Source: an uncultured Hyphomicrobiales bacterium
Lineage (GTDB): Bacteria > Bacteroidota > Ignavibacteria > Kapaibacteriales > UBA2268
Length of the DNA stretch: 51,075 nucleotides
Reading direction: 5' to 3'
Assembly (NCBI GenBank): GCA_964499465.1
Contig: CAZCLJ010000002.1
Coordinates: 1 to 51,075, forward strand
Below the pieces are notes generated by a model. It saw only the letters and a list, made by a program, of their open reading frames with translations. It was not told where the DNA came from and did no database searches. This document shows positions 21,388-31,315 of this stretch, piece after piece. Every line of letters starts with the position of its first letter. Within the stretch, counting starts at the first letter, position 1. A program made the position numbers and the translations under genes.

Positions 21388-21465
21388 CATCATCTTTTAT
21401 CGCTTTTTGGGCACAGGGCGGGCACAAGTCCGCCAATGCAATACAGGGAAAGCGATAAAATGATG
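21388..21465 (+). repeat. Heptad/inverted-repeat element, copy 1
   Basis: Long inverted repeat CATCAT(CT)TTTATCGCTTT / AAAGCGATAAAATGATG. It encloses GGGCACA-N4-GGGCACA (21409-21415 and 21420-21426), a GGCGG/CCGCC hairpin and GCAATACAGGGA. It ends 6 nt from the stop of the minus-strand gene at 21472. Confidence 0.6.
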
Positions 21466-21471
21466 GCGGGA

Positions 21472-21984
21472 TTAAACTTTTATTTTATTAATATCGTCAA
21501 AAGTTTCTAAGCCTAAATCCCAGGCATCGCGACCTTTCTTCCATAGCTTCCAATCCTTGTATGGAGATTCCGGGGTTATTTCCCCTTTTATTGGTTCGCT
21601 GTTTTTATTACTGGCATCAAAAATATACCAGCCGTCGGATAATTTTATTTCGGCAACCGAATGGACCATTTTTTCTTTTCTCAATTTAACGAATCTTGTT
21701 TCCAGCCCCAATGCTCGGCAAAAAGAAATAAACAAAACTACTAGATCAGTGCAAGCTTTCCCCTTATAGACATAACTATCATCGAAAATTTCCGAGGCGG
21801 TTCTTTTCCAACGTATTGATTTTTCATGTTCTGCGGTCGAATCGTTGAACGGCCTGATATCAATCTTGGAAAACATGCGATTGCGAATTTCTACCAACGT
21901 ATTATTGTCGGCCGGCAATTTTAAATCGCTGACAAACAATTTAATATTTCCGCTAAAGTCGACTTGTGATTTTAAATTATTCAT
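21472..21984 (-). CDS. Transglutaminase-like (papain-fold) domain protein
   Basis: Putative Cys/His/Asp triad context: GKACTDLVVLFISFCRALGLETRFV ... VHSVAEIKLSDGWYIFDAS. Confidence 0.6.
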   Translation of the reverse strand: MNNLKSQVDFSGNIKLFVSDLKLPADNNTLVEIRNRMFSKIDIRPFNDSTAEHEKSIRWKRTASEIFDDSYVYKGKACTDLVVLFISFCRALGLETRFVKLRKEKMVHSVAEIKLSDGWYIFDASNKNSEPIKGEITPESPYKDWKLWKKGRDAWDLGLETFDDINKIKV

Positions 21985-22068
21985 AAAATTATTAACTAAT
22001 ATTGATTATATTATACTATTTTAATCATAAAAATCAATCATACATAAATTTTAATCAATAAAAAAATA

Positions 22069-22103
22069 AGCTATTAAAAGGAGTTGATTTCCCATTAATA
22101 GCT
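22069..22103 (-). terminator. Hairpin terminator downstream of the rSAM pseudogene
   Basis: 9-bp stem AGCTATTAA/TTAATAGCT, followed by a T-run on the minus strand. Confidence 0.45.
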
Positions 22104-22204
22104 ATAGATCATACTTGTATACGAATAAATTCCTTTCTGGCTATAATCTTTAAAATTTTTACAAAATCCTCTGAAATTTTTCCGCCGGAACTTTTAATTG
22201 CTAA

Positions 22205-22896
22205 CTATTCTACGGATAAAGGCAGAAATTTTTCCAACCAGCAAATAAAATTAAACATCTCTTCATTAACAACCATTAAATTACGGTGATTTCTTTTAGA
22301 AGTAATAGAATAGTATCCTTTGGTCTCTTTACGCCATCTTAGCGCGCCGACAAATTCAATAAGAGCATCTTCTTTTACTATAATCTCGTCTTGTTTCTTT
22401 TCCGGCAAACTAATCGGAGCTGTTGCCAAATGATCCATTCCTTTTACGGAGCCAGTTATGGCCAAAGCGTTCATTCTGCACCCGCCGTTGCAAGAAAAAA
22501 CAGCTGGACACTCCCCACATACATCAGGAACTGAATTTTCTCTATACTCCGCCATTTTATCCCATATTACTTCAAGAGATTCGTACAATAAATTGCCGAA
22601 AGAAACGGGATTATGAGAGCAAGGCCTTATTTCACCAACATTGGAAACGCTCACTGACATCCTTCCTGCCTGACAAGATCGTCTCATAAACGAATATTTC
22701 TTTTCCCAACACCATGCTGGCAAAAAACACTTTGGCAGAACTTCAAGAACGTCCACTTCTAGACCCAAATTTTCGGAACACCATTTTAAATCCTCTAATA
22801 AAGTTATAATTTCCGGCCCACTGAGCAACCCTTCATAATCAGGACTCTCAACATTAAGACTAGCCGGGGTAGCAGCAAATCTCTTGACGCCTAATT
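22205..22896 (-). pseudogene. Radical SAM/SPASM-domain protein, 3' part, disrupted by the IS3 element
   Basis: SPASM-type Cys clusters: CQAGRMSVSVSNVGEIRPCSHN...GNL...VCGECPAVFSCNGGCRMN. Removing 22897-24102 plus one TTT restores ...IRSTAMEMAKLGVKRFAATP.... Confidence 0.75.
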
Positions 22897-22923
22897 TTGC
22901 CATTTTGGCAGGTACCCATTTCT

Positions 22924-23748
22924 TCAAACACTTTTGTTCAGTCCGTCGACCTCTAAGGCGGCGAGCTGATAGAATTGTTTGGGGCTCATTTTCAGAGCTG
23001 TGTGAATGCGGTTATTGTTGTAATAATATATCTGGCGGTAAATCGCTTCGGCCAGCTGTCCGTCATTCTCAAAACGACCGATATTTCCCAGTTCCAGCTT
23101 GAATTGCGAATAAAACGATTCTTTGTGGGGATTCTGCCAGGGGCTGCCCTTGTCGCTCATTGACACTTTCACACCCAGACTCGTTAAAAATTCGGCATGC
23201 TCATAGGACTGGTATTCCGACCCCTGATCGGAATGGAAATATTCCGGCAGGCAATTTCTCTTTTTTATGGCATCCAGAACGGCTGCTTTCACCAAAAATC
23301 TGTTATGCCTCCGGGAAACGGCGAAGCCGATAATTTCTCTGGTATAAATATCAATAACCGTGGCCAGATAGAAAAAACCATTCTTAAATCTGATATAGGT
23401 GAAATCGCCGCACCAGACGACATTCGGAGCTATTGGAATAACCGCCGTTATCTCATTGCGGTATTCCGCCTCCGGCAGGCCGACATCGCCCGGCTTGGAG
23501 AATTTCCTGCTTTTCCTGGTTTTCGGCGCCAGGCCGTATTTTTTCATTATCCGCAATATCCTTTTTTTGTTGATTTTCAATTCCAGGGCTATCCGCTTGT
23601 GGCCGTAAAACGGATTAGAAACTAAGACATCGGTTATCTCATCTCTGATTGGAATATCTTTAGCATCCAGTTTTGATTTATAATACAACGAGGATCGGCT
23701 GATACCTATTTTTTCCGCCAATAATGATCTATTTAGTTTTTCCGCCAT
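22924..23748 (-). CDS. IS3-family transposase OrfB (DDE/rve integrase core)
   Basis: 274 aa: WCGDFTYI, HSDQGSEYQS, NPHKESFYSQFKLE, YYNNNRIHTAL. Confidence 0.9.
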   Translation of the reverse strand: MAEKLNRSLLAEKIGISRSSLYYKSKLDAKDIPIRDEITDVLVSNPFYGHKRIALELKINKKRILRIMKKYGLAPKTRKSRKFSKPGDVGLPEAEYRNEITAVIPIAPNVVWCGDFTYIRFKNGFFYLATVIDIYTREIIGFAVSRRHNRFLVKAAVLDAIKKRNCLPEYFHSDQGSEYQSYEHAEFLTSLGVKVSMSDKGSPWQNPHKESFYSQFKLELGNIGRFENDGQLAEAIYRQIYYYNNNRIHTALKMSPKQFYQLAALEVDGLNKSV

Positions 23749-23749
23749 T

Positions 23750-29771: not shown

Positions 29772-29778
29772 ATTATTT

Positions 29779-29809
29779 AAAAAGCGATAGTCCCAAAGAG
29801 ACTACCGCT
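29779..29809 (-). terminator. Intrinsic terminator between the rSAM gene and the methyltransferase
   Basis: Minus strand: AGCGGTAGTC-loop-GACTATCGCT (10 bp, one G-U) followed by TTTTT. Confidence 0.65.
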
Positions 29810-29813
29810 CAAA

Positions 29814-30884
29814 CTACACACATCGCCAACATTGTGGATCTTTATCAAAAAAACTGCCTGTAGTGCCGGCAGAAACAGCATGACAACCTCTGCAATATTG
29901 CAAAAGATTGCAATCTTTACAACCAGAAAGATTTTCGACTTGACGATATTTTTCCATCTCTGGTGACAAAAATATATCTTTAAAACTCTGGGTATTAACA
30001 TCACCAACCAAACTATCAAATCTTCTACAAGCGTAAACCGTACCATTTGGAAGCAACGTCATATGAGAAATTCCACAATTACAACCATCAAAAATTATAT
30101 TCTTTTCTTCGCAAAGCTCATAAAGACCTTCTTCGTAAAGAAAAGGTGTCCACAGATGATCTTTTAACGAAAATTTGGTCTTGCCATCTATAAACCTAGA
30201 ATATACTGTCCACATTTCCGAAAGAAATTGTCTATAAAGTTTCGGAGACATACCATATTCAATATCTCCACGGGTTGGACAATAACGCGCAAAAGCAAAG
30301 TTCCCGACTTCATTATCAACACATAACTTAACCACATCGGCGACTTCTTGATAATTCAATAATGAAACCGTTGTCATTATCATGCTTCTAATTCCGTATT
30401 GATGTAAAAGAGGAATTGCTTCCATTGTTGCCTTAAAAGATCCCGATTTTCTCATTTTGTCGTGAGTTTCTTTTAAGCCGTCGAGGGACATTTGGTAATT
30501 TGCGCAACCGAAATTCTTTAGAAGCTGCAAATTATCAGGAGTGAGATGAAAAGGGTTCCCCAAAATTGTAAAACCGATTTCATGCTTTTTCAAAACTGCA
30601 AGCAGTTTCCAGACATCAGCATACAATAACGGATCTCCACCAGTAATTGAAAAATGAGGGATAACAGACATTTGCTCACAAAAATGAAGGAAATCAACGA
30701 TAATTTTCTCGGCTTGAGAGATGGTGGGGGTAGCTTTAAACCCTTCTTTTTCGTGTTTTTGCCAGATATAGCAATGCTGGCATCGTTGATCACATTTGTT
30801 AGTCAAATGCCATTGAAGACCGAATGTTTTTTTCACTACAACCTCCTGTTTTGGAAAATAAGGGGGAGAAAACTCCCCCTCCAT
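29814..30884 (-). CDS. Radical SAM / SPASM-domain peptide-modifying enzyme (intact)
   Basis: The CxxxCxxC is C31-DQR-C35-QH-C38, in WHLTNKCDQRCQHCY. GGDPLL follows. C-terminal auxiliary-cluster cysteines: DGCNCG...YACRRF, GCKDCNLLQYCRGC, QCWRC. Confidence 0.9.
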   Translation of the reverse strand: MEGEFSPPYFPKQEVVVKKTFGLQWHLTNKCDQRCQHCYIWQKHEKEGFKATPTISQAEKIIVDFLHFCEQMSVIPHFSITGGDPLLYADVWKLLAVLKKHEIGFTILGNPFHLTPDNLQLLKNFGCANYQMSLDGLKETHDKMRKSGSFKATMEAIPLLHQYGIRSMIMTTVSLLNYQEVADVVKLCVDNEVGNFAFARYCPTRGDIEYGMSPKLYRQFLSEMWTVYSRFIDGKTKFSLKDHLWTPFLYEEGLYELCEEKNIIFDGCNCGISHMTLLPNGTVYACRRFDSLVGDVNTQSFKDIFLSPEMEKYRQVENLSGCKDCNLLQYCRGCHAVSAGTTGSFFDKDPQCWRCV

Positions 30885-31042
30885 TATTCCCGCTCACTGT
30901 CGCAGCTGCCACCGCAACCACCCGAACAGCTGCAACGACCACGATCTGGATTTGACCCTGGATGCATTATAGTCTGAGCACTACCAGCAAATACGCGGTT
31001 AGATTTTCTATTCCAGTAATTGAACCGAGCCAGGCTTTTCAT
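30884..31042 (-). CDS. Candidate RiPP precursor peptide, 52 aa. Not in the ORF track.
   Basis: My translation: MKSLARFNYWNRKSNRVFAGSAQTIMHPGSNPDRGRCSCSGGCGGSCDSERE. SD AAGGTGA lies 6 nt upstream. The stop TAA overlaps the rSAM ATG (TAATG). Confidence 0.7.
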   Translation of the reverse strand: MKSLARFNYWNRKSNRVFAGSAQTIMHPGSNPDRGRCSCSGGCGGSCDSERE

Positions 31043-31098
31043 TTTTATCACCTTCTTTCTTTTGTTTTAAATGAGCTGGCGACTTGAATAACAAAAAA

Positions 31099-31127
31099 AG
31101 CATATCACAATGCTATACTTTTGTCAA
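31099..31127 (-). promoter_or_regulatory. Sigma70-like promoter for the peptide-rSAM operon
   Basis: Minus strand: TTGACA (31127-31122), 17-nt spacer, TATGCT (31104-31099). Confidence 0.55.
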
Positions 31128-31218
31128 TGATTACGTGATTAAATCAAATAAAACTTATTAATCATTTACATACCCGGCCTTTTCCTTGTCCGAAATTCCG
31201 TAGTCAAAAGCCTATTTT

Positions 31219-31315
31219 ATTGCTTTTGCTATACCGAAAATAGTCAAGAACAATAGTGGGCACAGGTTGGGCACAAACGCCGAAATTCGCCTGCCCGCGG
31301 AGGCGATAAAGCAAT
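31219..31315 (+). repeat. Heptad element, copy 3 (divergent)
   Basis: GGGCACA-N4-GGGCACA at 31258-31264 and 31269-31275, in the same context as copy 1 (..GGGCACAGGnnGGGCACAAn(n)CGCC.. then GCGATAAA). A weaker flanking inverted repeat is ATTGCTTT/AAAGCAAT. Confidence 0.45.

Follow-up and report, generated by a model that had tools for sequence, protein, structure and literature searches.

Phased heptad pairs as probable att-site arms of integrative islands at a tRNA-Ser gene in an uncultured Kapaibacteriales genome

The attP of phage λ, whose attB lies between gal and bio, carries the arm-type sites P1, P2 and P'1-P'3 together with sites for IHF, Xis and Fis. Phage mv4 of Lactobacillus, which has a heterobivalent tyrosine integrase of the Tn916 subgroup, targets a tRNA-Ser gene, into whose 3' end it integrates; the arm sites of its 215-bp attP are 11 bp long and form two pairs, each made up of adjacent direct repeats at the end of one arm (bioRxiv 10.1101/2023.11.06.565760). 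Islands at tRNA genes that are bounded by att sites and have no integrase, the cis-mobilisable elements (CIMEs) and tycheposon remnants, are known as well (compare bioRxiv 10.1101/2020.12.28.424599). Here we consider three short repeats in a stretch of 51,075 nucleotides, the window, which is positions 1 to 51,075 of contig CAZCLJ010000002.1 (assembly GCA_964499465.1) from an uncultured bacterium that is named as a member of the Hyphomicrobiales and placed by GTDB in the Kapaibacteriales (Bacteroidota; Ignavibacteria; UBA2268). A first-pass annotation found that each repeat contains two heptads 11 nt apart, and suggested protein-binding sites or a folded element. Judging from sequence comparisons, it is very probable that the three copies are arm regions of the attL and attR sites of integrative islands that would use the 3' end of a tRNA-Ser(GGA) gene and a λ/Tn916-type integrase.

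The heptad pairs can be read directly from the plus strand. Copy 1 has GGGCACA twice, with starts at 21409 and 21420 (21409-21426); copy 2 has GGGCAAC and GGTCAAC, with starts at 29105 and 29116 (29105-29122); and copy 3 is GGGCACA-N4-GGGCACA, with starts at 31258 and 31269 (31258-31275). The spacing within each pair is exactly 11 nt, and the positions and sequences first reported for all three are correct. When both strands of the whole genome (4.95 Mb, 32% GC) were scanned with the strict pattern GG[GT]CA[ACT][ACT]N4GG[GT]CA[ACT][ACT], there were five matches, three of which are copies 1-3, all on the plus strand and within 10 kb. The heptad-pair observation is real, and far from chance.

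Copies 1 and 2 resemble one another more extensively. They have in common TTTTTGGGCA / CTTTTTGGGCA, the GGCGG-loop-CCGCC hairpin and conserved motif of the first-pass annotation, which is GCAATACAGG in both, and an outer inverted repeat whose sequence differs between the copies while its complementarity is kept. Copy 3 has no more in common with the other two than the paired heptads and an outer inverted repeat, which is short. When copy 1 was left out of the building of a covariance model, the model still found it, at 53.8 bits (E = 2e-13), but did not find copy 3. BLAST of the copies against their own genome gave no further copies, and exact motif searches gave only the two. Two short flanking strings, both 14-mers, are also in common, as had been noticed, lying just outside the limits first given to the copies: AATCAACTTTTACC occurs twice in the 4.95 Mb (29074 and 31322) and ATTTTAAAAATCAA three times (21313, 31314 and one place elsewhere), so that both are nearly unique. 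They make up the halves of a composite string, ATTTTAAAAATCAACTTTTACC, on the plus strand at 31314-31335, between copy 3 and the att core described below. Its second half recurs at 29074-29087, as the start of copy 2, and its first half at 21313-21326, left of copy 1. ATTTTAAAAATCAACTTTTACC is a candidate for a second protein-binding motif common to the arms.

The setting of copies 2 and 3 is that of an integrated element. The annotated tRNA-Ser(GGA) gene, the putative integration target, is at 31383-31470 on the minus strand, and its 3' end is a 26-bp sequence, TGCGGAGAGTGAGGGATTTGAACCCT, at 31382-31407 (plus strand), that is repeated exactly at 28962-28987 (plus strand). There are just these two copies in the whole genome, and they bound a 2.4-kb island. 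Such exact recurrence of a tRNA 3' end is the classic footprint of an element that has integrated into the 3' end of a tRNA gene. Copy 3 is just inside the tRNA end of the island, where its heptad pair starts 124 nt before the core, and copy 2 is just inside the far end, where its first heptad starts 118 nt after the displaced core. Joining the island ends in silico gives a virtual attP with the two heptad pairs 267 nt apart.

Is this geometry found elsewhere? Exact-pattern scans were made of species-representative genomes and of metagenome contigs, followed by covariance-model searches. The genome scan gave 28 matches and the contig scan 108, both about the number expected by chance, and each included one true homologue, L043 and L057, respectively. 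The exact pattern TTTGGGCA-N12-30-GCAATACAGG had no match in the other 253 genomes of the order. Covariance-model searches turned up a second copy in G254, the genome that holds L043, and six copies in G151, a genome from another genus of the same family. Contig 3 of G254 has the same tRNA-Ser(GGA) gene adjoining a GatA gene, and this GatA is 72% identical to that of the window. The G254 island is 9.1 kb long with a 25-bp core repeat, and has cargo unlike that of the window island, a hairpin module at its far end as copy 2 is in the window, and an intact tyrosine integrase gene adjoining the tRNA (PF00589, 5.6e-34). The last codons of this integrase contain GGGCATT and GGGCATC, 11 nt apart. 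The P heptad is 124 nt from the core in both the window and G254, and the distance from the core to the P' heptad is 118 nt in the window and 117 nt in G254; the att geometry is conserved between the two genomes. Comparison of synteny with genomes of the same genus gave no result, as these genomes are too divergent.

For the G254 integrase there are 1415 homologues at E ≤ 1e-20; many are named in their sources as proteins of Patescibacteria, Ignavibacteriales or Cloacimonas, and other uncultured lineages are represented too. We examined nine integrase loci (G254, L175, G151 and L177-L182). The integrases have the PF00589 domain, and in all nine loci a TGGGCA-type heptad pair in the 11-nt register is inside the 3' end of the integrase gene, the pair of L180 being a weaker variant that was seen by eye and not flagged by the script. 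In L177, L181 and L182 the same pair occurs again 206-276 nt downstream, past a tRNA-like core; this is an intact attP with one pair per arm. The attP of L181, where the integrase is 52% identical, carries the full P' module at 72.6 bits, which shows that the module belongs to the att arm and did not insert there independently. An AlphaFold2 model of one family member, P0003, has a mean pLDDT (predicted local distance difference test) of 86.5 and an N-terminal domain of three strands plus a helix, like that of arm-binding domains, with pLDDT > 90; Foldseek matches the integrase model to Tn1549 Int and to full-length λ Int. The tail encoded by the heptad DNA, residues 350-370 of P0003, is disordered in the model, which argues that it is the DNA there, rather than the protein, that is under constraint. 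Directly upstream of int is an excisionase-like HTH_17 gene in L175, L177, L178, L179, L181 and the contig of P0002. The intact attP of L181 adjoins Prim-Pol/AAA_25 and terminase small-subunit genes, and the integrase module of L179 a Rep-type replication gene; at least some members of the family therefore have the look of phages or satellites and not of plain islands.

What sequence of events would account for the three copies? We propose that the islands are moved by a heterobivalent tyrosine integrase of the λ/Tn916 type, and that the GG(G/T)CA-type heptad pair in its 11-bp register would be a pair of arm-type sites for the N-terminal arm-binding domain of the integrase, with each arm holding one such pair at a distance of about 115-130 bp from the core. 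Copy 3 would then be the tRNA-side, or P, pair, which in intact relatives sits inside the last integrase codons, the integrase gene having presumably been lost in the window. Copy 2 would be the far-side, or P', pair of the same 2.4-kb island, within a conserved module of about 90 nt, and copy 1 would be what is left of the P' arm, the module, of an island that is older and has decayed, at a point further on in the same zone of accretion. The arm-site interpretation draws its support from the fixed distances at which the pairs flank the tRNA-Ser cores, from the integrases of relatives with their predicted arm-binding domain, and from the intact attPs that carry the pair on both arms. We infer that the integrase binds the heptads. 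Of the two kinds of protein-binding repeat that the first-pass annotation offered, the comparative att evidence thus favors recombinase arm sites, and iterons are unlikely.

Core direct repeats, and arm sites of one consensus on both arms, are both present in the window; a cognate integrase gene beside the att site is present in relatives and not in the window, from which we take the window to hold an integrase-less derivative. There is no recombinase among the genes of the 2.4-kb island. Beside copy 3, the search for an integrase remnant gave only an insignificant match, HYSLSTTSKYA. As the genome encodes no cognate integrase, the islands, including the 2.4-kb island, are probably immobile now unless integrase is supplied in trans.

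The far-arm, or P', module is the most elaborate part of these sites. Copy 2 is the distal P'-arm module of the island, at 29074-29159 on the plus strand (108.5 bits with covariance model R1 and 100.9 bits with R2; fold z = -4.1), and copy 1, at 21378-21471 on the plus strand, is a second P'-arm module (76.5 bits with R2; fold z = -6.3). The modules are 86-108 nt long. Reading 5' to 3' on the plus strand, three to five decamers like TAYCAACTTT come first, in a 10-11 nt phase. The heptad pair follows and begins with CTTTTTGGGCA, which is invariant; its second heptad is covered by an inner hairpin. Then come GCAATACAGG, likewise invariant, and the two innermost decamers once more, in inverted form. 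All of these can be seen in copy 2, where the inner hairpin is GGCGG/CCGCC. Among 12 examples, 92.9% of the cells are paired and 16 of the 23 pairs have changes on both sides, compared with one to four pairs in shifted-partner controls, so the compensatory stem noticed at first is borne out by strong covariation. Swaps of the inner hairpin are visible by eye, from GGCGG/CCGCC to GTTGG/CCAAC and TTTGG/CCAAG. The palindrome also mirrors, in order, the decamer variants particular to each element. Ordered mirroring is not what one common protein site would produce, and it seems therefore that base pairing, or palindromy itself, is maintained in the module.

The module also has a set relation to the neighboring genes. 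As the first-pass annotation had it, copies 1 and 2 abut the stops of minus-strand genes. The stop codon starts exactly 24 nt after GCAATACAGG at copy 1 (a transglutaminase-like gene), at copy 2 (a TehB-type methyltransferase gene) and at L043. In these three elements (window positions 21472 and 29162, and L043 position 5377, for the stops) the module is in frame with the abutting stop, and the read-through would be ..FPVL..PKK and then stop; there is no sign of coding constraint on this frame in copies 1 and 2 or L043. In all nine elements whose neighboring gene was checked, that gene, the last of the cargo, is oriented towards the module on its GCAATACAGG side, and in three of these the stop abuts the module. 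In the circular form, transcripts that passed the module would run antisense into the integrase gene. We think it most likely that the palindrome and GCAATACAGG are a site for an architectural or a directionality factor, or else form a hairpin to stop cargo transcripts from crossing the att site.

Several observations weigh against the proposal that the copies are att arms, or limit what it explains. Arm-site function alone does not account for the mirrored, element-specific decamer palindrome, or for the fixed distance of 24 nt between GCAATACAGG and the stops of three unrelated genes. The alignments behind the covariation counts had been fitted to the model, which biases the counts towards the modelled structure and somewhat overstates the signal. 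No cognate integrase was found in the window or in the whole genome, which is 99% complete, tblastn giving just two Xer-like homologues of about 30% identity. Copy 1, L043 and L057 have no recognisable att core alongside, so that not every module is demonstrably at an island end; a search by eye for a decayed core left of copy 1 gave nothing convincing. Our proposal also leaves unexplained why the heptads of copy 1 are of the copy 3 type and not of the copy 2 type. That discrepancy is less troubling in light of L177, where GGGCACT and GGGCAAC are mixed within one attP.

One might ask whether the palindrome of copies 1 and 2 works instead as a folded single strand, with the heptads secondary, either as an RNA terminator, stabiliser or insulator where the cargo operon ends (its 3' end) or as a single-stranded DNA hairpin in transfer or recombination. 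The covariation among the 12 homologues speaks for this, as do the fold z-scores of copies 1 and 2 (-4.1 to -6.3; -4 to -6 on both strands), the orientation of the neighboring genes, and an excess of G.T over A.C wobbles on the plus strand (23 to 7). The wobble asymmetry, however, is biased, as the model was built on the plus strand, and stems of 19 bp with invariant loop motifs would suit DNA sites equally well. The P arm, moreover, has the same heptads within the integrase gene, and no palindrome accompanies them there. Neither copy has a canonical intrinsic terminator: a scan for a GC-rich hairpin followed by a T-run found 15 sites in 20300-31600, none at copies 1-3, the canonical terminators nearby being at 31351-31372 and 28878-28906. 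Scans of Rfam 15, at the gathering score and at E ≤ 10, the first of the checks that the first-pass annotation had proposed, gave no match at copies 1-3. We regard a folded strand with secondary heptads as possible and the less probable account; it is compatible with att arms and does not exclude them. A related idea, that the P'-arm module is a functional folded nucleic-acid element beyond its duplex protein sites, common to a very large uncharacterised integrase family, we hold more tentatively still, and rather doubt. Such an element may be a single-stranded DNA or RNA hairpin that steers the direction of recombination, or it may be an insulator that keeps transcription of the cargo out of the att site and of the integrase gene, which is antisense to it.

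The remaining explanations fare much worse. An attC-like cassette site, either an integron attC proper or an analogous folded single-stranded site that delimits gene cassettes, is suggested by imperfect palindromes directly after open reading frame (ORF) stops, by the outer CCAAC...GTTGG of copy 2, and by structure that is kept while sequence varies. The check for an integrase elsewhere, also proposed at the outset, gave no IntI in the whole genome (the best TIGR02249 match is 75.5 bits against a cut-off of 265). Further, CACCAAC and GTTGGTA on the minus strand of copy 2 each agree at 5 of 7 positions with R'' (RYYYAAC) and R' (GTTRRRY), copy 1 is without a matching left box, the internal and loop motifs keep their sequence, several genes are enclosed in the 7.7 kb that separates the copies, and the module goes together with a tRNA att core and a λ-type integrase. 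The attC proposal is already largely refuted, and we find it barely credible. The first-pass annotation had also allowed for a decayed coding sequence; the candidates for a decayed or short one are the plus frame FI(A/T)FWA..AIQ.. and then stop, and a minus read-through ending ...FPVL...PKK. It is true that the P-arm heptads are inside the integrase ORF tail of intact relatives (...TFGH.../...TFGQ...), and that the upstream stop codon shares the minus frame of copies 1 and 2 and L043. Yet the changes between copy 2 and L043 are almost all non-synonymous in both frames, the conserved blocks show no variation at any of the three codon positions, the plus frames have no usable start codon, and disorder is predicted for the integrase tail that the heptads encode; coding descent is very unlikely. 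Equally poor, in our view, are the prospects of replication-origin iterons or of the transfer origin (oriT) of a mobilisable element. Direct repeats phased at 10-11 nt, a hairpin followed by a conserved motif, and the extra iteron-like repeats near the L057 module would be in keeping with these, but no Rep or relaxase gene adjoins the modules of the elements examined, and the repeats are at fixed distances from att cores in both arms.

To return to the att arms that we favor, the cargo of the 2.4-kb island spans 29162-31051 on the minus strand, with all three genes transcribed towards copy 2: the TehB-type methyltransferase gene (29162-29755), a radical-SAM/SPASM enzyme gene (29814-30884) and a Cys/Gly-rich ORF of 55 codons (30884-31051). 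The 55-residue product has a Cys/Gly-rich C-terminus (..RGRCSCSGGCGGSCDSERE), and its ORF is directly upstream of the radical-SAM/SPASM gene and overlaps the start of that gene; it is a candidate precursor of a ribosomally synthesised and post-translationally modified peptide, carried as island cargo.

To the left of this island is a zone of decayed remnants, with glycosyltransferase and epimerase genes in truncated form, a carbamoyltransferase-CYTH pair, a split radical-SAM/SPASM gene, and two paralogous modules of about 190 nt with ends like a tRNA 3' end. Copy 1 closes this zone, directly after the transglutaminase-like gene (21472-21984, minus strand). The cargo adjoining copy 1 spans 21472-24460 on the minus strand and includes the second radical-SAM/SPASM gene, in fragments at 22205-22927 and 24239-24460 (minus strand), broken by insertion of an IS3-family element whose annotated transposase gene is at 22924-23748. 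The two paralogous intergenic modules, 24510-24702 and 28800-28987, are 77% identical over 107 nt and have an exact 34-mer in common. Each has a terminator-like hairpin followed, at its end, by a fragment resembling a tRNA 3' end, which in module 28800-28987 is the exact tRNA-Ser core and in module 24510-24702 a degenerate core. These modules probably mark further att junctions of older islands.

Some features of the relatives may be added. The cargo of the G151 and G254 islands looks defence-related: an OLD-family ATPase/TOPRIM protein and a UvrD-type helicase, resembling Gabija, are encoded at 10404-14151 of L171 (G151:C66), and a SocA/Panacea-domain protein and a weak TIR-like match at 6051-8657 of L162 (G254:C3). 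G151 also has a truncated second module, with the att core to one side of it and the full P' module to the other (L171 585-660 and L172 19190-19265, minus strand), in which the decamers and GGACACA/GGTCACA are present and the right half is missing; this suggests serial accretion or rearrangement of arms. In L057, a 3.5-kb metagenome contig, three to four iteron-like copies of GGTCAGGTCTTGTATTTCAACATTT, about 60 nt apart, are directly left of the P'-arm module, at 2540-2720. A separate dispersed repeat of about 100 nt, TTGTGGTTATTTCTTTTAACACAAAGGGCACAAAGTATTTCACTAAGAACACAAA...AAAAGCAATACTTC, is found on at least eight contigs of the source genome (C10:26234, C42:7915, C46:3987, C170:44, C176:8448, C209:5033, C230:3008 and C275:5700), with some copies near contig starts.

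What is gained from this analysis? A puzzling repeat is explained as a footprint of site-specific integration, and the radical-SAM/SPASM cargo can be seen to have arrived as a mobile module. For a very large and uncharacterised integrase family there is now an arm-site signature, TGGGCA-type heptads in an 11-bp register about 115-130 bp to either side of a tRNA-like core, which can serve to mark the limits of islands, and of cargo cassettes that have no integrase, in metagenome-assembled genomes. The conserved and covarying palindrome of the far arm is a concrete target for experiment. The general mechanism is that of the textbooks, and the finding refines annotation and leaves concepts unchanged.

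How, finally, does the window compare with systems that are known? Integron attC sites are similar in being imperfect palindromes directly after cassette ORFs, with stems that keep structure more than sequence; they differ from the copies here, which have no IntI, no R''/R' consensus, conserved loop motifs, and a link to a tRNA core and a λ-type integrase. Tycheposon remnants at tRNA genes reportedly have remnant and tandem-array features. The 2.4-kb island resembles these remnants and the CIMEs in having two att arms, two cores and no recombinase, and in standing in a tandem accretion zone downstream of a tRNA gene beside older, decayed islands. The integrase family and the hosts are different, and mobilization in trans is here inferred, for a genome in which the cognate integrase is absent. 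With λ attP the window shares a core flanked by arms with repeated arm-type sites, and in the relatives the integrase model aligns with λ Int over its full length, including the N-terminal domain, and an excisionase-like gene adjoins int; the number, spacing and orientation of the sites and the tRNA target set it apart from λ. Phage mv4 is the closest characterised case. Its target is likewise a tRNA-Ser 3' end, each arm has one direct-repeat pair of arm sites, and the integrase has about 370 residues in three domains. Unlike those of mv4, the proposed sites here have a heptad consensus of the TGGGCA type and a P-arm pair within the 3' end of the integrase gene, and are accompanied in the P' arm by an extra, conserved palindromic module with GCAATACAGG. 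Most likely, then, the window element is a set of att-site arms from a family of tRNA-Ser integrative islands, the integrase-less form of a known kind of element.

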